Positions 27,989 through 45,034 of a stretch of DNA of 45,034 bases are shown here, one piece after another. Position numbers and translations under genes: made by a program. The stretch comes from a virus, in UHGV virus genome UHGV-0114729. One strand, 5' to 3'. How positions within the stretch are numbered: the first letter of the stretch is position 1; every line of letters starts with the position of its first letter. The notes under the pieces were generated by a model that saw only the letters and a list, made by a program, of their open reading frames with translations, did no database searches and was not told where the DNA came from.

Positions 27989-28819
27989 TTACCGCGTTAT
28001 CTGCTTAAGCTGTTTTTCTGCCCATGCCTCTTCAATATCGAATTTCGTAATCAGCTGATCATAGAACGGTTTAACGGACTTCTTCCACGTATCCAGGCTG
28101 ATTACATCCGTAATCTGGCAAACAGCTGCGTGGGCCTCAGTTGACGGGATGCGCTCATATCCGCGACCGCCACAGCGCTTGCAGGTGCTGAATACTGGAA
28201 CGCCTTGCTGCTTCGTTTCCTTCTGATTCACCGCTTTCCCACGGCCACGGCAATCACTACATGCGCAACTGATGGCTTTTTTCCCTTTGCACTGAGGACA
28301 GAGAACGCGCGTTATCTCTTTTACCTCACGCCTGTTTTGGTGCTGCGAAGGTATCACCTTCAAACCAAACGCTTTTGATGCCTTAATGATTTCTTTTGCA
28401 TGTGCCGGCGTATTGGTTTTCATACTGAATACCTCAGCATCAATAAAGCCCTCACCGTTGCAGCAATCGCACCGTTTTACACTGGCTGCGCTGCGGGAAT
28501 AATCCTCAAATGCGAAGGTGGCCAACTGGTACATCACCTGAGGCTTAACCCCGAAATCCAACTTACGCAGCGCGGCAACCTTGTCACATTTGGTCATCGC
28601 GTACTCAGCCAGCAGTCCGATAGCCCGATCCCGGTCGTTATTGCTTATGCCCATCTTGCCGAGGAAGGCGCTGTAACCCATTGCGGCGCGTTCCTGGGTC
28701 ATGCCCATGGCCGCCATGACATCCGTCCCGGTCAGCGAATCTGAACCAGTGGCGCGCGGAGAGTCGCTAATAAGCGTCGACTTGGCGAAGTGATATTTCA
28801 CGGTGTTTTCGAGGTTCAT
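27989..28819 (-). CDS. Q: Late antiterminator Q (QuuQ-like, with DnaJ-type CxxCxGxG zinc fingers)
   Basis: 276 aa. N-terminus and CPQCKGKK / CSDCRGRG / CKRCGGRG repeats resemble E. coli Qin QuuQ as recalled. Confidence 0.88.
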   Translation of the reverse strand: MNLENTVKYHFAKSTLISDSPRATGSDSLTGTDVMAAMGMTQERAAMGYSAFLGKMGISNNDRDRAIGLLAEYAMTKCDKVAALRKLDFGVKPQVMYQLATFAFEDYSRSAASVKRCDCCNGEGFIDAEVFSMKTNTPAHAKEIIKASKAFGLKVIPSQHQNRREVKEITRVLCPQCKGKKAISCACSDCRGRGKAVNQKETKQQGVPVFSTCKRCGGRGYERIPSTEAHAAVCQITDVISLDTWKKSVKPFYDQLITKFDIEEAWAEKQLKQITR

Positions 28820-35724: not shown

Positions 35725-36270
35725 TCATATAACCCCCAGCATCGATGTAACCATCGTCATCAGCGGTCCTACCTGCTCCGGCATGAGGCGGAACAGCGAC
35801 GCTATACCCTCGCTTACCTCTTTGAGCTTCTGATGCTCTGGAGCGTCCAGCAGCACGGCCTGTTTAGCCTCGGCACACTCTTTCATCGCAGAGGCGATCA
35901 GCGACATCGTGTCGTTCTGCGGCGCCAGACGGTTTCGGTACTCCAGCGGCAGGACCGACATGATTGCCGGGGCCAGCTGGCGAATGTTGTTGGCGGCATA
36001 TTCGGTATCGCCATCAATCCATCGAAACACTTTCTGCATCTGGCGGTGCGAGTCAGTCGGGATATCCAGACCGGTTCCGCCGGACGCCCGCCACTCTTCC
36101 ACGATCAGCGCGGCGACAAATTCACGGCTTCGGCAATCAGCTGCCCAGGCGCGAACAGCTGCGCGGATCCCATCGATGTTTAACGCCGTGGAATCAGGCT
36201 CCCGGCGATTCTGGTAAATCATCGCCGTTGGCGAAAATTTGTTACCTTGTTGATACGCAAGTGAATGCAT
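35725..36270 (-). CDS. YdaT-family protein (CII functional analogue)
   Basis: 181 aa. The ..EEWRASGGTGLDIP....Q.VFRWI.GDTE.....I.QLAPAIMSVLPLEYRNRL pattern parallels E. coli Rac YdaT as recalled. Located directly after cro. Confidence 0.65.
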   Translation of the reverse strand: MHSLAYQQGNKFSPTAMIYQNRREPDSTALNIDGIRAAVRAWAADCRSREFVAALIVEEWRASGGTGLDIPTDSHRQMQKVFRWIDGDTEYAANNIRQLAPAIMSVLPLEYRNRLAPQNDTMSLIASAMKECAEAKQAVLLDAPEHQKLKEVSEGIASLFRLMPEQVGPLMTMVTSMLGVI

Positions 36271-36287
36271 TGCTTTCCCTTTCGTGG

Positions 36288-36521
36288 TTAGGCCGCAGTA
36301 TCACGCGGCGATGCGAATACCAGGCTTTCTTTTAGGACCGGAGCCTGGCGGTGAAAATTCTTCGTGCCTTTCTCGATAGCAGATGCCATTTCTGGAGATG
36401 CCCGGCGATTTCCGTAGGCGATCTGGTCCAGGTAACCTGGCGTCGTGTTAGCCAACTTTGCGAGCTGCGCCCATTCGTCGGTAGTGGCGGCCTTGCGCCA
36501 GCGGTGTAGTTCAGTGCTCAT
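36288..36521 (-). CDS. cro: Cro / YdaS-like HTH repressor
   Basis: 77 aa, divergent from cI across the operator region. HTH segment is WAQLAKLANTTPGYLDQIAYGNR. Confidence 0.8.
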   Translation of the reverse strand: MSTELHRWRKAATTDEWAQLAKLANTTPGYLDQIAYGNRRASPEMASAIEKGTKNFHRQAPVLKESLVFASPRDTAA

Positions 36522-36553
36522 TGGTGTCTCCGGGTGAGTCGTTTGATTTGGAG

Positions 36554-36619
36554 TTTAGCGTTATGCTAAATACTACGCAAGCATCATTTAGCAATTTGCA
36601 CATTTATCATTTTGCTAAA
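36554..36619. promoter_or_regulatory. OR operators / pR-pRM region
   Basis: TTTAGC-GTTAT-GCTAAA (36554-36570), a degenerate copy near 36587-36603, and TTTATC-ATTTT-GCTAAA (36603-36619). Confidence 0.7.
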
Positions 36620-36637
36620 AGCAGTAACAATGCAGGT

Positions 36638-37315
36638 ATGGAAAATAAAGAAATCAGAAAAGCCAACCTGGAAGCGCTGTACGAGAAGCGTCAGCACGAG
36701 TCTGGAATGACCAAAGCGCAGTTTGCCGAGCTCATCGAGACAAGTCCGGCTGCGCTTAGCCAGCTACTGGGACCAAACCCTCATCGCAATATCGGCGATA
36801 AGATGGCTCGCAAAATTGAAACTGCGCTTGATCTGCCTTTTGGCTGGATGGATGTTTTACACGCCAGTGAAGAACCTTCGAACGTTGCATTTCGAGGACT
36901 GAACGAGACAAAAGGAAGTTATCCTGTAATCAGCTGGGTAAGCGCGGGGCAATGGATGGAAGCTGTAGAACCTTATCACCGAAGAGCGATAGATCGCTGG
37001 TATGACACGACTGTTGACTGCTCAGAAGATTCATTCTGGCTGGACGTTAAAGGGGATTCTATGACCTCCCCGGCTGGACTGAGCATACCCGAGGGAGCAG
37101 CGATACTTGTTGATCCTGAAGTCGAGCCGCGCAACGGAAAGCTGGTTGTCGCGAAGCTAGAAGGCGATAACGAAGCGACCTTTAAGAAGCTTGTAATCGA
37201 TGCCGGCAGACGCTTCCTAAAGCCCCTTAACCCCGCATATCCCATGCTAGAAATTAATGGAAACTGCAAAATCATCGGCGTTGTGGTTGATGCCAAAATA
37301 CTAAACATCCCATAA
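36638..37315 (+). CDS. cI: CI repressor (HTH + S24 LexA-like autopeptidase)
   Basis: HTH (MTKAQFAELIETSPAALSQL). GDSM Ser and FKKL Lys dyad. Start chosen at MENKEIRK. Confidence 0.92.
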   Translation: MENKEIRKANLEALYEKRQHESGMTKAQFAELIETSPAALSQLLGPNPHRNIGDKMARKIETALDLPFGWMDVLHASEEPSNVAFRGLNETKGSYPVISWVSAGQWMEAVEPYHRRAIDRWYDTTVDCSEDSFWLDVKGDSMTSPAGLSIPEGAAILVDPEVEPRNGKLVVAKLEGDNEATFKKLVIDAGRRFLKPLNPAYPMLEINGNCKIIGVVVDAKILNIP

Positions 37316-37334
37316 CCTCACGCAAAACCCCTCA

Positions 37335-37359
37335 AGCCCGCCATCGCGCGGGCTTTTTT
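37335..37359 (+). terminator. Rho-independent terminator after cI
   Basis: AGCCCGC-catcgc-GCGGGCT followed by TTTTTT. Confidence 0.8.
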
Positions 37360-37398
37360 ACGTCCCGAATTCCTTCGCTGTAAATTTTTAATCGCTTA

Positions 37399-37475
37399 TT
37401 AATCAATACGCTAAATAAAACCATTCAACAATTTAGCATTTTGCTATTGCGCATAATTTAGCATCACGCTAAATT
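37399..37475 (+). promoter_or_regulatory. OL operators and candidate pL
   Basis: TTAATC-AATAC-GCTAAA (37399-37415), TTTAGC-ATTTT-GCTATT (37432-37448), TTTAGC-ATCAC-GCTAAA (37457-37473). Candidate promoter is -35 TTGCGC (37447) with -10 TAAATT (37470). Confidence 0.6.
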
Positions 37476-37481
37476 TACCCC

Positions 37482-37891
37482 ATCGAAACGAAACATCGAC
37501 AGCTGAGCGAAGTTAGCCAGCGGCGGACAGCAAGTCGCCTGCTTTTTAACAACATGCAGATTTACAGCGTCAATGACCTGTTAAGACCCCTACACGTAAA
37601 CGTGCTGTATCACCGGGTGCGATCCGGTCGGTGAGAGAGTATCCCCGCGCGAGAGCGAGAACGGCGTGAGAACGGGCAACACTGGCAGGGAGTTGGCGCT
37701 GACCAATACAGGGAATGTTATGGGCTGTGGTGAAGGGTTCATGGACGGGAATATGTCGCACGTAAAGCGGCGAGGCCCGAGGAGCTATTGCCGAAGATAA
37801 GTAGGCCGAATCGGGTCGAAATGGGTCTCCCACCTACCACATCGCCAAAGCATTTCTCCCGCATCAGCGGGTAACGACAGAGGGTAAGTCA
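37482..37891 (+). other. Long untranslated, GC-rich pL leader (possible cis-acting or stable RNA)
   Basis: No ORF longer than about 26 codons in any plus frame, and no Arg-rich N-like ORF. Lies between pL and the first gene. Confidence 0.5.
37540..37552 (+). promoter_or_regulatory. boxA-like element (TGCTTTTTAACAA)
   Basis: One mismatch to the E. coli rrn boxA TGCTCTTTAACAA. Preceded by an imperfect hairpin (37519-37543). The pair could alternatively be a weak intrinsic terminator. Confidence 0.5.
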
Positions 37892-38560
37892 ATGATTCGT
37901 CTTAACAACGAAATTAAAAATCAGCTATGCCATAACCTGCTTCTCGCATCCCCATTGTTTGAGAAAGCGAAAGCTGCGGTTAATGAGAGGGCGAAAATTG
38001 TTGAAGAAATTCGACAGGCATTGCTCAAGCAGGAAAACACTAGCGATGAGCAAATAACTAAGGCTCGGGAAGATTTCAAAGATAACTCCTTCATCAAGAT
38101 GCAGGTCGGCGCTAAAACTGCAATTTTAAAGGTCATTATTAATGGTGAGTATCACGAATTAGCCAGGAACGGTTTGGATCATCGCTATCGCCACCGTGGA
38201 AAACATATTGGTAAGCACGATCTTGAAAGCGACCTGTTCTTCGGAGCTTCCTTCGCGCCTGTAATTGATTCGGGTTTCGTTCCTGAAAGTTACAGCACGC
38301 TGAAGAAAGTTGGAAAATTACACGACCGACTCACTGAATCGACGGTAACCATCAACGTTCTTTACGATGAAGTTGATGCCTTCCAATTGCAGGTTAAAGG
38401 TGCTCTAACCAAAGTCTCAACTGTTAAAAAACTGGCTGAGATGTGGCCTGATGCAGTGCCATATTTGCCTGAGGTGGAACGCCGTGAAGCGACCAGCACC
38501 GCACTTGCCATTCCCGTTGAAACGCTAAACGCCCTTTGCGGCATACCAAAGAATGAATGA
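37892..38560 (+). CDS. Orphan 222-aa protein, first gene of the pL operon
   Basis: Clean ORF followed by its own terminator. The N-terminal MIRLNNEIKN.. and C-terminal ..VSTVKKLAEMWPDAVPYL remind me of the Nmad5 family, but I cannot verify this. Confidence 0.7.
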   Translation: MIRLNNEIKNQLCHNLLLASPLFEKAKAAVNERAKIVEEIRQALLKQENTSDEQITKAREDFKDNSFIKMQVGAKTAILKVIINGEYHELARNGLDHRYRHRGKHIGKHDLESDLFFGASFAPVIDSGFVPESYSTLKKVGKLHDRLTESTVTINVLYDEVDAFQLQVKGALTKVSTVKKLAEMWPDAVPYLPEVERREATSTALAIPVETLNALCGIPKNE

Positions 38561-38582
38561 CCCGCTCCGGCGGGTTTTTTAT
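38561..38582 (+). terminator. Rho-independent terminator after the 222-aa gene
   Basis: CCCGC-tccg-GCGGG followed by TTTTTTAT. Confidence 0.85.
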
Positions 38583-38721
38583 CGGCCATACATAGGCAGA
38601 TTTTCGAGTCTGCCCATTTATGACAACCGGCGGCCATCCACCGCCCATTGAAACACTGAATAAATGCGTTGAAGTCTTGTATTAACCGTTCCGTTCGCCG
38701 CGATAAGGCCAAGAGGAAATC

Positions 38722-38928
38722 ATGGTAAACCAGCACTACGGTACACAGACAGTAAACCGCGGCGCAGTTCAGCCGGGGATGCTCGTCAAACACAAGGATT
38801 CAACCTGGACGGCATCAGCTAATGCTCGTGGTCGTTTGTATCTGCATCGCGGCGTTGAGATGACTTACACCAGGGATTTGCTGGTTGAAGTTTATCTGAA
38901 CGGTCTGGGGCATGGACTCAGCCACTAG
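38722..38928 (+). CDS. Hypothetical 68-aa protein
   Basis: AGAGGA RBS. No recognisable motif. Confidence 0.55.
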   Translation: MVNQHYGTQTVNRGAVQPGMLVKHKDSTWTASANARGRLYLHRGVEMTYTRDLLVEVYLNGLGHGLSH

Positions 38929-39240: not shown

Positions 39241-42150
39241 ATGGAATTTTTCCATCTGATAAAAGCCAGTCAGAAGTCTGGTAAGAAAGATGCAGTGATT
39301 TGGTTCACTGCGAAAAGTGTAGCGCGCGCCAATCTCCAACTCGATGTGGCACTGGAAGAAGCCGGAATTGAAGAAACTGGCCGCGGTAAAGATTATGCCA
39401 AACCAATCCGCACCGATTTCCCGGTATATGACGACCTGCCGGAAGAAGGCGCAGTGGATTACACCTGGTGCGAACGCTACGAACTGCAGAACGATGACCG
39501 CACCTGGCTGCCAAAAGTCACAGCTGAAAACTCTGACGAGAAAACGGCTCAGACCGTTGATAGTCACATAACTACTGAGTCAACGCTGCCAGAAACCGCT
39601 GGCATCACGCTGGACGAACACGACGACGACTCAACCCTCTACCCGGTAGTGCAGATGCCGTTTCGTAAGCAACTGCTTTCCCAGTTCACCGCCGACGAAC
39701 TGCGCCACCACGTAACCCACGAAGAGTACGAAGCTATCGGCGCGCTGGAGATGGACACTGATAACAGTTACGTCCAGAACTTGCTGTTAGCTGCTGAGAA
39801 CTGCCCGGAAGTGAAGGGTTACGACACCAAAGACCTGTGGCGCTACACCGATGCCATTCGCAAAGTGTTCAGCCAGGACAAGCGTCACGAACTCGCGCTG
39901 GTACTCCGTTTCACCAGAATGTGGGCGGCGACTGATTACATTGACCGTGGCATCCTGGCGCGTGAATGGGCCGCCGGTAATCGCATCAGTAGTGTGCAGC
40001 GTACTGATTCCGGCACTAATGCCGACGGCGGTTACGTCACTGACCGTGGACCTGACGCACACCACACACTGGACACTCTCGATTTAGAGATTGCGTGTGC
40101 CCTTCTGCCTATGGACTTCAACCACTTCGAGATCCCGGGCAGCATTCTTCGTCGCGCTAAAGAAATCGTGACCAAAAAAGAAGAACCATGGAAATCATGG
40201 AGCAACATCCTGCGCAATCAGCCAGGCGTTCTGGGTGTTAACCGCACGGCTATTTTTAACCTGGTACGTATCGCACCGGAAAATATTCATTTAACTCCTG
40301 TCGCTCACCTGGAATTTGTTAACCAGACCATGACAGCCGCGTTCAATTCCGCGGTCGAGTTATTGCCGTTGCATGAGGCTGAACCCGCAACACAGGAAAT
40401 TCCCCAACCTGAAGGTAAGGAGTCTCCGCGCAAATCCTTCTGCACTCACGAAGAGAACCTGCAACGCGTGCGTGAAGAAGGAGCACGCCGCCGCGCAGAG
40501 GAAGCGGCAGCACAACAGCAGAAAGTCGAACAAGAACTGGTTAAAAATGTCGGCAACGGAATATTCGACGTTACGGCTTTGCTGCAGAACTCAGCAACTC
40601 ATGGCACGAAAAAGGCTACGGAGACCACCAGCAATGTGCAGGTTCAAGAAACTGTCAGTGATGAAAAACAAGCTGGTGATGAAGTACAGCTAGGCGAAAG
40701 CAGTCTGGAGTCTGGTGAAGAGTCACATCCCGGCCAGAAGGACGATGTAAACCAGAATACGGATTCTGTCGCCAAAAATAGCGATTCTGTAAGCCAAACC
40801 GAACCAGTTGCAGCACAAACCGAGCCAGAAGCGCAATCTGACGAACCAGCTGTTGTTTATCCCGCTTATTTCGAGCCAGGCCGCTATGAAGGGCTGCCAA
40901 ACGAGGTTTACCACGCCGCCAACGGCATCAGCTCAACCCAGGTGAAAGATGCGCGCGTTTCGCTGATGTACTTCAATGCGCGCCACGTAGAGAAAACCAT
41001 CGTCAAAGAGCGCTCAGCGGTGCTGGACATGGGCAACTTGGTGCATGCGCTGGCGTTGCAGCCTGAACTACTGGACGCAGAATTCAGCGTTGAACCGGTG
41101 ATCCCTGAAGGCGCATTCACAACGGCCGCGACCCTGCGCGCCTTTATCGATGAGCACAATGCCAGCCTGCCGGCGCTGCTGTCTGCCGACGACATCAAGG
41201 TGTTACTGGAAGAGTACAACGCCACCCTGCCGCCGCAGGTTCCGCTTGGCGCTAACCTGGAAGAAACGGCACAGAACTATATGGCGCTGCCAGCTGACTT
41301 CCAGCGTATTGATGGTGACCAGAAGCAGACGGCGACGGCAATGAAGGCATGCATTAAAGAGTACAACGCCACCCTGCCGCCGCCGGTTAAAACCAGCGGC
41401 AGCCGTGACGCGCTGCTGGAGCAGTTGGCAATCATCAACCCTGACCTTGTGGCTCAGGAAGCACAGAAACCGGCACCACTGAAAGTGTCCGGTACCAAAG
41501 CAGACATGATCCAGGCCGTGAAGGCAGTCAAACCAGATGCCGTATTTGCCGACGAACTGCTGGATGCCTGGCGCGATAACCCGGAAGGAAAAGTGCTGGT
41601 CACCCGCCAGCAGCTGAGCACCGCGCTGAATATTCAAAAAGCGCTTCTGGCACACCCGACCGCCGGCATGCTGCTGACCCACCCTAGCCGAGCCGTTGAG
41701 GTGAGCTACTTTGGTTTTGACGAGGAGACGGGCTTGGAAGTTCGTGTGCGCCCTGACCTTGAGATCGACCTGGATGGCGTGCGTATAGGTGCAGACCTGA
41801 AAACCATCAGCATGTGGAATGTTAAGCAGGAAAGCCTGCGCGCCAGGCTACACCGGGAAATTATTGAACGTGATTATCACCTGAGCGCGGCTATGTACTG
41901 CGAAACCGCAGCGCTGGATCAGTTCTTCTGGATTTTCGTCAACAAAGACGAGAACTACCACTGGATCGCCATCATCGAGGCATCCGCTGAACTACTGGAG
42001 CTGGGTATGCTCGAGTACCGCAAAGCGATGCGCAATATCGCAACCGGATTCGACACAGGTGAATGGCCAGCGCCAATCACTGCTGACTACACCGACGAAC
42101 TGAACGACTTCGACCTGCGCCGCCTTGAAGCGCTGCGTACTCAGGCATAA
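39241..42150 (+). CDS. recE: RecE-like exodeoxyribonuclease VIII (969 aa; C-terminal PD-(D/E)XK domain)
   Basis: C-terminal region has GLPNEVYHAANGISSTQVK, ..RPD.., and ..GADLKT.. (the D...DxK motif). The long acidic N-terminal extension resembles Rac RecE. Located directly upstream of the annealing protein. Confidence 0.85.
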   Translation: MEFFHLIKASQKSGKKDAVIWFTAKSVARANLQLDVALEEAGIEETGRGKDYAKPIRTDFPVYDDLPEEGAVDYTWCERYELQNDDRTWLPKVTAENSDEKTAQTVDSHITTESTLPETAGITLDEHDDDSTLYPVVQMPFRKQLLSQFTADELRHHVTHEEYEAIGALEMDTDNSYVQNLLLAAENCPEVKGYDTKDLWRYTDAIRKVFSQDKRHELALVLRFTRMWAATDYIDRGILAREWAAGNRISSVQRTDSGTNADGGYVTDRGPDAHHTLDTLDLEIACALLPMDFNHFEIPGSILRRAKEIVTKKEEPWKSWSNILRNQPGVLGVNRTAIFNLVRIAPENIHLTPVAHLEFVNQTMTAAFNSAVELLPLHEAEPATQEIPQPEGKESPRKSFCTHEENLQRVREEGARRRAEEAAAQQQKVEQELVKNVGNGIFDVTALLQNSATHGTKKATETTSNVQVQETVSDEKQAGDEVQLGESSLESGEESHPGQKDDVNQNTDSVAKNSDSVSQTEPVAAQTEPEAQSDEPAVVYPAYFEPGRYEGLPNEVYHAANGISSTQVKDARVSLMYFNARHVEKTIVKERSAVLDMGNLVHALALQPELLDAEFSVEPVIPEGAFTTAATLRAFIDEHNASLPALLSADDIKVLLEEYNATLPPQVPLGANLEETAQNYMALPADFQRIDGDQKQTATAMKACIKEYNATLPPPVKTSGSRDALLEQLAIINPDLVAQEAQKPAPLKVSGTKADMIQAVKAVKPDAVFADELLDAWRDNPEGKVLVTRQQLSTALNIQKALLAHPTAGMLLTHPSRAVEVSYFGFDEETGLEVRVRPDLEIDLDGVRIGADLKTISMWNVKQESLRARLHREIIERDYHLSAAMYCETAALDQFFWIFVNKDENYHWIAIIEASAELLELGMLEYRKAMRNIATGFDTGEWPAPITADYTDELNDFDLRRLEALRTQA

Positions 42151-43312: not shown

Positions 43313-43555
43313 ATGCGACTGATCAATCGAGGAAGTAAGCAATCACCTTTAGCTCGCCAAGCATGCGACATCGCGCTGGCAGCTCACTTGCAAACATATG
43401 GCGACTATGGGCGAAGCAAGATGAAAGAGACTTATACGGTGAAGGTTGAAGGCGTGAAAGTCTGGGTGGAGGTGGTGAACCGAAAGGCGAGCTACGTGGC
43501 CACAGCGATGACCGGCATGCGCCGTCTCCGCTCCCTGCCCGGGCAGGTTGGTTGA
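43313..43555 (+). CDS. Hypothetical small protein
   Basis: ORF only. The true start may be the internal MKETYTV. Confidence 0.4.
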   Translation: MRLINRGSKQSPLARQACDIALAAHLQTYGDYGRSKMKETYTVKVEGVKVWVEVVNRKASYVATAMTGMRRLRSLPGQVG

Positions 43556-43596
43556 AAAAGATTTTGAATGGCCCGAACGGGCAACTGGAGAGAGCT

Positions 43597-43794
43597 ATGG
43601 ATGATATTTTGGTAACGTCAGACCTGACCAGTCGCTACAAAATTTCACGCAAAACCCTTTGGTCATGGCAAAGTGCAGACACAATGCCTCGGGGCTTCGT
43701 ATGCCCGTTCCCACCCCCTGACTGGCCCGGCAACCCTAACCGCTGGCGCTCTGAGTCAATCAAAGAGTGGGAGGATAAAAAGAAGATAAATTAA
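43597..43794 (+). CDS. xis: AlpA/Xis-type excisionase (MerR-like HTH)
   Basis: [20 protein letters not shown] is typical of the AlpA/excisionase HTH. It converges on int with a 4-nt overlap. Confidence 0.75.
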
Positions 43795-44984
43795 CTGAAG
43801 GGCTCTCCGATGATCTCTTCAAGATGGCTCTGCCAAACGCGGAGCCAGTGTTTCTGATCATCGATATAGTCATGAAGGTTGTAATGCGCCATAACCCCCA
43901 CCATCTGATGCCCGAGCAGCTTTTCAATTACGTGCGGCGGGCAACCTAACTCAGAGAGATTTGTGGCTATCGTCCGCCTCATATCATGAAGCGACCACTC
44001 TGCCATACCTGTTCCATTCCAAATAGAACGGGCGTAATTGGATGCCACAGGTGAATGAACGGGCGAATCTTTGATCCCGCCATCAATTTTACGTTGTGAA
44101 GTCACCAGGTGATTGGTGTTTATTTTCTTGAGGTGATTTCTGACCAGGTTAACGGCGGCGTCTGAGAGTCCCCTTCTAATATGTACCCGAGTTTTATAAC
44201 TGCCCGCAGGCACGACCCACTCATTATCATCCAATCGAAACCATGATCTCTCACTAAGTCGAATCTCAGCCGTACGGCATCCGGTAAGCATAATAAATTT
44301 CACCAGGAAAACGGACTCTATCGACATATGGCTTTTCAACCACTGATAGATTTTGCGCAGATCGTCATCGTCCATCCTGCGAGTTCTCTTTTTAGGCTTT
44401 TGCCCGACATCAGATGGCAGTAATCCCTCGAGTGGGTTTGAGGCGATCACACTTCTGTTAACGCAGAACCTAAACGCCCGTTTGCACAGCGAAAGCATGT
44501 AATGAGCCATCACCCTGCTTTCTATAGAATCGAAGACGTTGATCCAGTGCATTTTCGCTGTGTTATCGACTTTGACATTCTTCATCGGTTCGGCGATATG
44601 TTTCTCAAACACCTGGCGATAGTAATCGACTTTAACTAGCCCGTTAGCGATACAGTGCCTTTCAATCCAGTAATTGAACGCTTCGGCAACGGACATCGCT
44701 TCCTGTCGGGTCTGCTTATCCAGCTTCACCTGCTCTCGCGGATCCAGTCCCTCAGTTAACCAGTTTCTGAATTGTTGGCGACGCTCTCTTGCCTGGGTGA
44801 TACTCATTGCAGGATAATCACCAACATTGAGTTTTACCGCTTTACCGGCCCAGCGATACCGATAGAAAAATGATATTTTTCCGGCCTGGCTGATTCTGGC
44901 GTTGAGCCCGTGCGAATCAGAAATAATCTCGATATCATCTCTTTTCTTGCCGAGCGCCTTCCTGAGCTTTGTGTCGGTGATCAT
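43791..44984 (-). CDS. int: Tyrosine integrase (P4/CP4-57-like, N-terminal DUF4102-type arm-binding domain)
   Basis: The C-terminal catalytic region contains R (TGCRTAEI), H..R (HDMRRT) and ..GH...VMAHY (Tyr). The likely start [10 protein letters not shown] is at 44984; the track ORF extends to a GTG at 45029. Confidence 0.92.
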
Positions 44985-45034
44985 TGAATGGGTACACATT
45001 TTTGTTTTTGGGTACACAAAAGTGTACACAAAGT

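Follow-up and report, generated by a model that had tools for sequence, protein, structure and literature searches.

How an early-left operon without an N gene is transcribed past its own terminators is the question raised by the virus genome UHGV-0114729, of which we analyzed a stretch of 45,034 nucleotides (the window). The initial annotation had described three CI operators and a plausible pL, a leader with an rrn-type boxA, no N gene and a strong terminator beyond, and from these features it suggested RNA-based or host-factor-only antitermination or, alternatively, a separate regulatory RNA. The operators and pL were indeed found before the leader, by pattern search and by mapping of the phi80 annotation (Table 1). 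Matches to ATTTAGC-N5-GCTAAAT with up to three mismatches number nine in the window against 2.0 expected, and six of the nine flank cI, three per side. pL was absent from a consensus promoter scan because each hexamer fits the consensus at only four of six positions; transcription from it would start near 37482. The leader that runs from pL to the first gene is untranslated and measures about 410 nt. The strong terminator, earlier placed at 38561-38582, is present and begins two nucleotides further upstream, and 38560-38645 matches the pair of annotated terminators in phage HK639 at 100% identity. Only by passing this terminator can transcripts from pL extend into kil, recE, recT and xis.

Table 1. 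Features of the early-left region in window coordinates.
Feature	Position	Strand	Description
Operators on the other side of cI	36553-36571, 36586-36604, 36602-36620		Pattern search
OL, three CI operators	37398-37416, 37431-37449, 37456-37474	.	Consensus ATTTAGC-N5-GCTAAAT; pattern search and repeats
pL promoter	37447-37475	+	-35 TTGCGC (37447-37452), -10 TAAATT (37470-37475); same as the annotated pL hexamers of phi80 (alignment)
Module A, initial transcribed segment	37476-37521	+	Common to HK639, CobraSix, HK225, KO-TP1 and phi80
Module B, phi80 'nutL'-type boxA-linked structured RNA	~37514-37705	+	Covariance model R1: 191 positions, 40 pairs
H0 hairpin, directly 5' of boxA	37522-37539	+	GGCG-G-AC / GT-CGCC
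boxA	37540-37552	+	TGCTTTTTAACAA; phi80 annotation 'nutL boxA'
H1 hairpin between boxA and core	37561-37584	+	TT-ACAG-GTC / GAC-CTGT-AA
GACCCC unpaired motif	37585-37590	+	GACCCY in all homologues found (alignments)
H2 boxB-like hairpin	37593-37604	+	CACG-UAAA-CGUG; A-rich loop of 4-5 nt; phi80 'nutL core'
H3	37610-37634	+	7-bp helix UCACCGG / UCGGUGA, 2-bp helix cap, conserved loop GCGAUCCGG
H4	37642-37669	+	Helix UCCCCG / CGG-C-G-U-GA around hairpin CGC-GAGA-GCG
3' motif	37670-37688	+	GAACGGGCAACACUGGCAG; includes weak helix H5 (37673-37675 / 37682-37684)
Module C	37721-37850	+	Long-range stem around three hairpins; 91% identical to a segment of HK97, 933W and HK106
Module D, gene-start cassette	37845-37891	+	Hairpin CCCGCAUCAGCGGG (37858-37871), Shine-Dalgarno GAGGG (37880-37884), ATG at 37892
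Nmad5-family ORF, 222 aa	37892-38560	+	Pfam PF18757, E 3e-29; phrog_1965 (function unknown in PHROG)
Strong intrinsic terminator	38559-38582	+	GACCCGCTCCGGCGGGTT then T6; sits where phi80 has tL1A

In the leader, the longest ATG-initiated ORF on the plus strand of 37476-37891 has 26 codons, as had been stated, lies at 37554-37634 and spans H1 to H3; we rejected it as a gene, since the ATG is lost in Stx2a phages and the frame is lost in variants with a 1-nt loop insertion. Two further ORFs begin with other codons, one of 44 codons with GTG (37666-37800), crossing a mosaic junction, and one of 28 codons with TTG (37788-37874), and neither has a meaningful Pfam match. Searches for N were negative as well. 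In the window, tblastn with lambda N, the HK97/933W-type N, the P22-type N, phi80 N and the basic HK225 ORF returned nothing, the best E value being 0.04 within a tail gene; Pfam searches of the leader and left-operon ORFs found no N-type family, an arginine-rich-motif scan gave alternative-frame artefacts only, and no left-operon ORF has an arginine-rich N-terminus. Thus the claim that the window lacks N agrees with every search, including the homology search for a conserved N-like ORF that had been named beforehand as a refutation, although absence by homology is not proof because N proteins diverge quickly. The description of the leader as GC-rich was overstated, its GC content being 55.3% against 51.7% for the whole window.

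Judged by alignment, the leader sequence itself is not new but is the pL leader of phi80, sequenced long ago. Pairwise comparison of 37475-37888 with phi80 gave one mismatch in 414 nt (99.5% over 413 nt). In the phi80 records (GenBank M11919, X13065 and JX871397), this stretch is annotated as nutL, with a boxA plus a 'core' hairpin; the boxA and 'nutL core' at 2566-2574 and 2619-2630 of phi80 (L001) map to 37540-37548 and 37593-37604, and the equivalent of 37503-37780 is called a 'nutL regulatory signal' in M11919. The homology stops at the Shine-Dalgarno/ATG and returns after the terminator. In the slot between, phi80 has a 98-aa N, whereas the window has the Nmad5 gene behind the same Shine-Dalgarno cassette. 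The lack of N in the window is the outcome of a cassette exchange that put Nmad5 in place of N right at the start codon, not of an ancestral N-less design; the single leader mismatch marks this swap as recent. The two phages share boxA, the 'nutL core' hairpin, the Shine-Dalgarno cassette, the tL1-flanking sequence and the pR operon type (YdaS/YdaT-like), and the window phage has a Q antiterminator gene; their operators and immunity are different. The phi80 annotation comprises boxA and a 12-nt core, without the multi-helix RNA of about 170 nt that is common to many phages.

As the comparison across phages shows, four portable modules, A to D, are pieced together as a mosaic in the leader, and of these only module B is the conserved boxA-linked RNA. 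For module A, blastn of 37474-37525 matched the other phages that have it at 92-98% identity. HK639 has modules A and D and the downstream terminators in common with the window, and between A and D it carries an annotated 'putL-like antiterminator RNA'; therefore, this slot is used there for an RNA antiterminator. In HK97, 933W and HK106, the counterpart of module C separates nutL from the classical N gene, which makes module C an N-leader-type domain rather than a nut site. One compensatory change distinguishes the window from HK97 in module C (CCCGA/UCGGG versus CCUG/CAGG), and single-sequence folding of this module was no stabler than shuffled (z = -1.2). Module D stands directly before unrelated genes in 46 of 102 loci.

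According to the alignments, module B is a conserved structured RNA of about 170-190 nt, built of H0, boxA, helices H1 to H5 and invariant unpaired motifs. Among 56 distinct sequences, 13 pairs show two-sided changes, compared with 3.8 +/- 1.5 in shuffled alignments (0/500) and at most 8 in slid controls. When the APSE and Klebsiella sequences were added, 24 of the 40 pairs did so against 14.6 +/- 1.9 shuffled (0/500) and at most 8 slid, with a covariation score of 0.307 versus 0.133; since the alignment (A4) had been fitted to the model, the pair counts are somewhat too high. These comparisons, of the kind that the initial annotation had proposed, reveal strong conservation among relatives and compensatory changes, and they support its view of the leader as a conserved, structured and noncoding element. 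It is covariation that carries the leader structure, as folding of the single 425-nt leader gave nothing stabler than shuffled sequence (z = -1.4).

The changes are spread over the helices. All six pairs of H0 are changed on both sides (alignment A4), and its sequence varies in relatives while some hairpin is always there; H1 has compensatory changes in three pairs and is re-formed with other sequence in Edno5, L028 and APSE. In H2, A-U is replaced by G-C in 10 of 24 sequences and G-C by A-U in 9 of 24. H3 has C-G to U-A in the Stx2a phages, as well as A-U to G-C and G-C to A-U in APSE, and H4 has compensatory changes in eight of nine pairs, its inner hairpin being swapped for other hairpins in L069, L260 and APSE. 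Between the helices, GACCCC could pair with GGG at 37674-37676, both sides of which are invariant, and GAACGGGCAACACUGGCAG is nearly invariant from E. coli phages through APSE phages. As for the reported repeats, GAGAACGG occurs twice as described, at 37657 and 37668, the first copy within H4, and CACGTAAA is found at 37593, its second copy lying at 37759 and not 37758. Chance pairs of 8-mers are common (19 families in 1.3 kb), and the leader repeats matter only through their place in conserved helices. An Rfam search, which had been recommended, yielded no family for the region: Rfam 15 gave 0 matches at gathering thresholds in the whole window and only chance-level matches (E >= 0.06) in 37300-38800. 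A literature search, extending to work other than the primary phi80 N/nutL, phi80 genome and HK639 papers, found no description of the module B RNA.

The boxA lies exactly where it had been placed and is the sole copy of TGCTTTTTAACAA on that strand of the window when up to one mismatch is allowed. From the rrn boxA UGCUCUUUA it differs once, by C to U at position 5; written as GCTTTTTAACA, it also has one mismatch to the consensus GYTCTTTAANA, C to U at position 4. Relatives carry TGCTCTTTAACAA or CGCTCTTTAACAA, and the consensus is perfect in, for example, PA2, L059, L083 and APSE. In suhB, C4T together with T6C in boxA abolished function and Nus recruitment (PMC5725501), and by analogy NusB/NusE binding to the window boxA could be weak. 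The rrn-style hairpin reported before boxA corresponds to H0 and is supported by its covariation. Double-stranded RNA next to boxA is likewise a target of NusB/NusE (PMC3177189), and the abutting position of H0 would fit this. H0 followed by the U-rich boxA scores terminator-like. From boxA to the first start codon there are about 340 nt without a conserved ORF, and a boxA scan of the window found none at up to one mismatch on the pR strand.

In the phage and viral collections, from which its taxonomic range is drawn, module B occurs in phi80-like prophages, outbreak-type Stx2a phages (the isolated phages PA2 and P13374 included), and phages of Klebsiella, Edwardsiella and Hamiltonella (APSE); of 5426 complete E. 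coli genomes, 244 carry it too, in no case with an annotation. Each of the 65 carrier loci, like the APSE phages, has a single copy, which in every case sits in the early-left leader, downstream of the repressor gene, and model R1 detected no second copy in the 45-kb window or the phi80 pR region. A scan of genome contigs with GCGATCCGGTCGRTGAG gave at least 120 matches; those listed are chance hits in GC-rich genomes, and none of them fits the core. The first gene after module B begins about +190 to +930 nt away and belongs to dozens of unrelated kinds: in 90 loci it is phi80 N in 8, Nmad5 in 3, a Rha-like gene in 21 and many unrelated genes in the rest. Classical N lies within 4 kb of module B in only two loci, and about 80 of the 90 (about 90%) are without phi80 N or classical N. 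In Edno5 a classical N is encoded about 750 nt downstream of module B, and the conventional nutR boxB of that phage (GCGCC-GAUACA-GGCGC) is absent from module B. No consistent arginine-rich ORF was found across the module B loci, nor was a common partner protein in the 90 loci; kil, a 52-aa ORF and gam-like genes are frequent, and none is in all carriers. An intrinsic terminator follows module B in at least 38 of 77 loci, a lower bound since the strict scan misses weaker sites such as phi80 tL1A and the PA2 terminator. In PA2, a deposited complete Stx2a phage genome, the order is pL, module B, module C, an intrinsic terminator (stem plus T7) and the first gene, and therefore the terminator precedes every coding sequence; the first 35 kb of PA2 contain no N homologue and no other boxA.

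Comparative evidence favors the RNA-based or host-factor-only reading: most carriers are without N, in viable Stx2a phages a terminator comes between the RNA and the first gene, and HK639 has a put-like RNA in the same slot. The leader may also be a separate regulatory RNA, for which there is no specific support. We estimate a probability of roughly one half that module B acts, together with host Nus factors, as a boxA-linked antitermination RNA for which phi80 N is dispensable. In such a mechanism, the nascent boxA would bind host NusB/NusE as RNA polymerase leaves pL, and the adjacent folded domain would remain with the elongation complex. The modified polymerase would withstand Rho along the leader and read through the terminator into kil, recET and xis; a dedicated phage protein would not be needed, which would leave phi80 N the role of an optional enhancer or specificity factor. 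For Nus/boxA complexes, action has been established on Rho-dependent termination but not on strong intrinsic terminators, which counts against this mechanism. Host-factor-only antitermination at boxA serves long untranslated RNAs in rRNA operons and CRISPR arrays (PMC7665894). From the comparisons we infer Nus-factor binding, antitermination activity and independence from N. It also counts against this reading that there is a single copy per phage and nothing in the pR operon, unlike in the N/nut and HK022 put systems.

If phi80 N were essential for nutL activity, the RNA in the window would be an orphan. Module B would then serve phi80 N strictly, N would have been lost through the Nmad5 cassette, and pL transcription would mostly stop at the terminator unless a co-resident phi80-like prophage gave N in trans. 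N, nutL and tL1 are indeed all annotated on the corresponding part of the phi80 records, the swap looks recent from the near-perfect leader, H2 is boxB-like with an A-rich loop, and seven further loci keep phi80 N after a near-identical module. However, the roughly 80 carriers without either N, isolated Stx2a and APSE phages among them, keep the RNA under purifying selection and with compensatory changes, and in PA2 a protein encoded downstream of the terminator could not start its own read-through. phi80 N, moreover, lacks an arginine-rich N-terminus, falls into no Pfam or NCBIfam family and belongs to a PHROG of unknown function. We consider the dependence on phi80 N unlikely.

About equally unlikely, in our estimate, is a regulatory leader that is not processive, in which boxA and Nus factors protect the leader or, as in suhB, repress it, and the fold serves RNA stability, RNase III processing, translation of the first gene, or sensing of a ligand or protein. 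Nus complexes at boxA can have a repressive as well as an antiterminating effect (PMC5725501). Module C is similar to the N-leader domains that HK97 and 933W have downstream of nutL, the multi-helix junction with invariant unpaired nucleotides is typical of ligand- or protein-binding RNAs, and the terminator-like score of H0 and boxA points the same way. Against this, the distance and identity of the first gene vary too much for gene-specific translational control, downstream intrinsic terminators are common, HK639 has a put-like antiterminator RNA in the same slot, and no Rfam riboswitch or leader family matches. Finally, that Nmad5 or another early product acts as N on module B is very improbable, even though Nmad5 sits exactly in the N slot behind the same cassette, follows module B in L103, L106 and L256 too, and N-type proteins are too divergent for decisive homology searches: in L255 an 80%-identical homologue lies downstream of a genuine classical N (PF25694), on which ground Nmad5 was rejected as an analogue of N; a second homologue, 49% identical, comes from a region without recognizable early-left genes; the three loci are 3 of 90; no left-operon ORF of the window offers the arginine-rich N-terminus; and by its distribution Nmad5 appears to be an accessory gene.

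Should the RNA act without N, it would account for early-left expression in a large 'N-less' lambdoid group, with the Stx2a phages from outbreak strains and the toxin-carrying APSE phages found in aphid symbionts among its members, and it would be a form of RNA antitermination bridging host rrn/boxA and phage put RNAs. If phi80 N is needed, the window is a natural N deletion and most carriers must hold an undiscovered partner protein. The same RNA is in the phi80-derived prophage of DH5alpha-type cloning strains and is thus easily tested. The phi80-like prophage of the window is itself present in the strains YPE10 and W619. Either way, module B merits an RNA family, unannotated as it is in E. 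coli genomes.

Compared with the N/nut systems of the lambda type (lambda, P22, 21, HK97 and 933W), the element is alike in being a boxA RNA site near the early-left promoter and upstream of terminators, with H2 recalling boxB and host Nus factors implied. It differs in that an arginine-rich N is missing from the window and most carriers, H2 stands 40 nt from boxA with a hairpin between, the hairpin before boxA is as in rrn, three further conserved helices and invariant loops follow, and the single copy has no nutR counterpart. A boxB of the lambda type has a GNRA-like pentaloop and follows boxA within a few nt; H2, as a candidate boxB, covaries and has its A-rich loop, which starts with a base other than G. 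The put RNAs, two stem-loops in about 70 nt, lack boxA and are independent of Nus factors, and HK022 has both putL and putR. Put antitermination requires no protein factor, and mutations affecting the zinc-binding domain of the beta' subunit of RNA polymerase block it (PMC9378689). Like put in HK022 and HK639, module B is a cis-encoded folded RNA in the pL leader of lambdoid phages without N. HK639 is the closer parallel: its sole annotated site is in pL, neither a put nor a nut feature being annotated in its pR operon, and a put-like RNA stands in the same slot before the same terminators. No likeness between module B and the put RNAs was detected in sequence or structure: blastn against HK639 finds only modules A and D in common, and model R1 with filters off reached at best 5 bits (E ~3) in the HK022 early region and HK639. 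With the host-factor-only sites of rrn operons, CRISPR arrays and suhB (repressive), the window element has in common a near-consensus boxA, perfect in relatives, a hairpin just upstream, in the rrn order of boxB then boxA, and a long untranslated RNA downstream that would otherwise be a Rho substrate. Unlike these host sites, which are without a large conserved folded domain, the window element is phage-borne and stands upstream of strong intrinsic terminators, which Nus/boxA alone is not known to suppress. We may propose, tentatively and as a possibility rather than a probability, that module B represents a third kind of phage antiterminator RNA, boxA-tethered, multi-helix and about 170 nt long, which with Nus factors alone would beat both Rho-dependent and intrinsic terminators and would be the early device of N-less lambdoid phages, including O104:H4-type Stx2a and APSE phages, with the phi80 'N' as an accessory.

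The untranslated pL leader of this prophage is that of phage phi80 with a different gene placed behind it. Window 37475-37888 differs from the phi80 pL leader at a single base, and the phi80 records annotate pL, an N gene (98 aa) and tL1 on the homologous stretch, as well as the nutL features listed in the table. The phi80 homology breaks off at the Shine-Dalgarno/ATG and returns past the terminator, so that the N coding cassette has been swapped for the 222-aa ORF, which belongs to the Nmad5 family (PF18757, E 3e-29) and to a PHROG of unknown function. This ORF, with its putative nucleotide-modification-associated domain, stands first in the early-left operon; its GC content, 44.8% vs 55% in the flanks, is consistent with recent cassette acquisition, and a classical N lies upstream of some of its homologues but not of others. 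Nmad5 as a substitute for N is rejected: the pL operon of an 80%-identical homologue also encodes a genuine N (PF25694), and a 49%-identical homologue sits where no early-left genes are recognisable.

Features of the early region and pL leader (window coordinates)
Feature	Position	Strand	Remarks
Q-type late antiterminator gene	27989-28819	minus	
cro-like gene	36521-36288	minus	
cI	36640-37315		
cI terminator	37334-37355		
OL and pL	37398-37475		leader then extends to ATG at 37892
Module A	37474-37525		common to HK639, CobraSix, HK225, KO-TP1, phi80
'nutL regulatory signal'	37503-37780		278 nt, phi80 record annotation
Module B	start ~37520 or 37540; end 37689, 37702 or 37727		ends phage-dependent
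Hairpin 5' of boxA	37522-37539		
'nutL boxA'	37540-37548		phi80 record annotation
boxA	37540-37552		TGCTTTTTAACAA
'nutL core'	37593-37604		CACGTAAACGTG; phi80 record annotation
Module C	37721-37850		91% identical to nutL-to-classical-N segment of HK97, 933W, HK106
Module D	37845-37891		hairpin + GAGGG + ATG
222-aa ORF	37892-38560	+	
Intrinsic terminator	38559-38582	+	
kil	38722-38928	+	followed by 53-aa zinc-ribbon ORF
recE, recT, xis	beyond zinc-ribbon ORF	+	int on opposite strand

The + strand of the window reads leftward on the lambda map, and E. coli strains YPE10, W619 and PS3Tanimalfeces2 carry the same prophage segment at 100% identity. As in phi80, YdaS- and YdaT-like genes open the pR operon: the cro-like protein is YdaS/HTH_3-like (35725-36521 minus-strand region), and the 181-aa gene after it, named cII in the phi80 annotation, belongs to the YdaT_toxin family (PF06254, E 2e-27). 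The gap between the two genes, only 17 nt, is too short to hold a nutR. In RecE (39241-42150; 969 aa), the exonuclease domain is preceded by a long, acidic N-terminal half of low complexity, and numerous spurious overlapping ORFs are called across the gene. In lambda, int is expressed by read-through from pL; here the integrase gene (43791-45029, minus) converges with xis (43552-43794, +) with a 4-nt overlap, so that its opposite orientation to the early-left operon precludes such expression.

The initial annotation had described an N-less operon led by a GC-rich leader with an rrn-type boxA, and the core of this description held. The CI operators are real (ATTTAGC-N5-GCTAAAT occurs three times on either side of cI, with 9 window matches vs 2.0 expected), as are the hairpin-preceded boxA, which is unique within the window, and the terminator ahead of recE, recT and xis; homologues of lambda N, HK97/933W N, P22-type N and phi80 N are absent throughout the window. 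Other details needed correction. The leader has no ATG ORF above 26 codons, as claimed, but it does contain 44-codon GTG and 28-codon TTG ORFs, both without family or conservation. 'GC-rich' mildly overstates 55.3% GC vs 51.7% for the window. The repeated 8-mers exist, with the second CACGTAAA at 37759, not 37758; such pairs are frequent by chance in the leader region.

By blastn against related phages, the leader was divided into four modules, A to D. About 120 phage records share module B, among them the Stx2a 'Oslovirus' phages PA2, P13374 (O104:H4), TL-2011c and phi191, Klebsiella KO-TP1 and Edwardsiella Edno5. Three hairpins closed by a long-range stem make up the fold of module C, which shows one compensatory change relative to HK97. 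Since its counterpart in HK97, 933W and HK106 lies between nutL and N, and the P22-type boxB of HK97 (GCGCTGACAAAGCGC) lies upstream of it, module C is an N-leader-type domain rather than a nut site. Module D is a gene-start cassette (hairpin CCCGCATCAGCGGG, then GGGTAACGACAGAGGG, 4-12 nt and ATG) found directly before unrelated genes in 46 of 102 related loci. Two copies lie within HK225, and examples are found at L005 3023-3051 and 3257-3280, L007 3189-3230, L012 2068-2121 and L013 2233-2276; the cassette looks like a recombination joint for swapping accessory genes into the early-left operon, such as N for Nmad5.

Homologues of module B were collected by scanning viral contigs with a 17-mer from its core (92 true homologues, 63 distinct), and blastn searches that started from divergent members extended the set to Hamiltonella phages APSE-1, -2, -7 and -8 and one Klebsiella phage. 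The consensus RNA begins with a hairpin of variable sequence (H0), boxA ((U/C)GCU(C/U)UUUAACAA), hairpin H1 and a conserved GACCCC (GACCCY in some relatives). There follow H2 (4-bp stem, A-rich loop of 4-5 nt), H3 (7-bp plus 2-bp helix, conserved loop GCGAUCCGG), H4 (a helix around a small hairpin that is capped by a GAGA tetraloop in most members; L069, L260 and APSE have different hairpins there) and the near-invariant motif GAA(C/A)GGGCAACACUGGCAG. Covariation among relatives, which the initial annotation had proposed as a check, exceeded shuffles. Across 56 distinct sequences, 95% of cells pair, and 13 pairs changed on both sides vs 3.8 +/- 1.5 in column shuffles (0/500) and at most 8 with slid partners. 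In 24 distinct sequences including APSE, 24 of 40 pairs changed on both sides vs 14.6 +/- 1.9 (0/500), with at most 8 in the slid control and a covariation score of 0.307 vs 0.133; the fitting of this alignment to the model biases it towards the structure. Individual compensations can nevertheless be seen by eye in H2 and, in APSE, in H3 (both A-U to G-C and G-C to A-U), and in H4b (CGC/GCG to CCC/GGG). The single-sequence fold of the leader is not unusually stable, and no Rfam family matches the leader. Additionally, H0 with the U-rich phi80-type boxA (UGCUUUUUAA; 37522-37552) scores as intrinsic-terminator-like about 60 nt past the transcription start, and relatives with the consensus boxA (UGCUCUUUAA) appear less so; the site may act in pausing or attenuation and so assist loading of the complex.

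A covariance model of module B (R1) located a single copy in each carrier, invariably within the early-left leader past the repressor gene, with no second copy in the 45-kb window and none in the phi80 pR region, nor any in HK022, HK639, HK97 or CobraSix. Likewise, the pR strands of the window and of PA2 contain no boxA with up to one mismatch. Module B is present in 244 of 5426 complete E. coli genomes, including DH5alpha-type strains with phi80-derived DNA, and is annotated in none of these carriers.

Does module B depend on N? In the 90 loci that extend far enough downstream, module B is followed by phi80 N in 8, Nmad5 in 3 and a Rha-like regulator in 21; the remaining first genes are unrelated and varied (HNH nucleases, a RelA/SpoT-like protein, small acidic proteins). 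A classical N is recognisable within 4 kb only in the two Edno5-type loci, and a scan for arginine-rich N-termini returned only alternative-frame artefacts. In Edno5, a 75-aa ORF that is unannotated or mis-annotated (L011 3280-3507) is a genuine N_peptide member (PF25694, 30.1 bits) with an arginine-rich N-terminus (MNSRQRRAMRYRA). This phage has a conventional nutR past cro (L011 700-734, minus strand), whose boxA is accompanied by a boxB, GCGCC-GAUACA-GGCGC, absent from module B. PA2 (Stx2a) has the order pL, module B, module C, a strong intrinsic terminator (AGACGCGCCAGCGTCT + T7) and then the first gene, with no N homologue and no other boxA in its first 35 kb. Because the terminator precedes the first gene, a protein encoded past it cannot initiate its own read-through. 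In the Stx2a Oslovirus phages (PA2, L003 1330-3749; P13374, L010 1-2250), cI and pL are separated by an inserted type II restriction-modification pair (PstI-like methylase, BsuBI-like endonuclease). Behind this pair comes a terminator, immediately ahead of the pL from which module B is transcribed.

On present evidence, module B is best read as the antitermination element of the early-left operon, in which boxA would recruit NusB/NusE and the folded domain would provide what N or put provide in other phages. Nus/boxA complexes are not known to read through a strong intrinsic terminator, so we would assign passage of 38559-38582 to the conserved domain. The abutment of H0 on boxA fits the double-stranded-RNA site of the NusB/NusE pair, which adjoins the boxA site of that pair (PMC3177189). 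For long untranslated RNAs such as rRNA and CRISPR arrays, boxA antitermination by host factors alone is established (PMC7665894), and this precedent would by itself rationalise a boxA heading a 410-nt untranslated leader. Caution on the N-free reading is warranted because the phi80 annotation labels this RNA an N-utilisation site, the window boxA has U for C at a position important at suhB (PMC5725501), each phage has one site only, and N proteins may evade homology searches. We hold the anatomy with high confidence, and the action of module B without a phage protein with moderate confidence.

The leader sequence itself is already known as the phi80 nutL leader. In the literature consulted and in Rfam, we found no description of the covarying multi-helix core of about 170-190 nt, of its sharing among phi80-like, Stx2a, Klebsiella, Edwardsiella and APSE phages, or of most carriers, this prophage included, being without N. 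Modules A and D also occur in HK639, as do the terminators further on: the terminator of the window and the hairpin region after it (38560-38645) match, at 100% identity, the two annotated terminators that follow HK639_44, the genes ahead differing, and phi80 shares this region only from 38600 onward. The HK639 pR operon has no put or nut feature. Between modules A and D, HK639 carries an annotated 'putL-like antiterminator RNA' where the window has module B; therefore, module B occupies the slot that a close relative uses for an RNA antiterminator.
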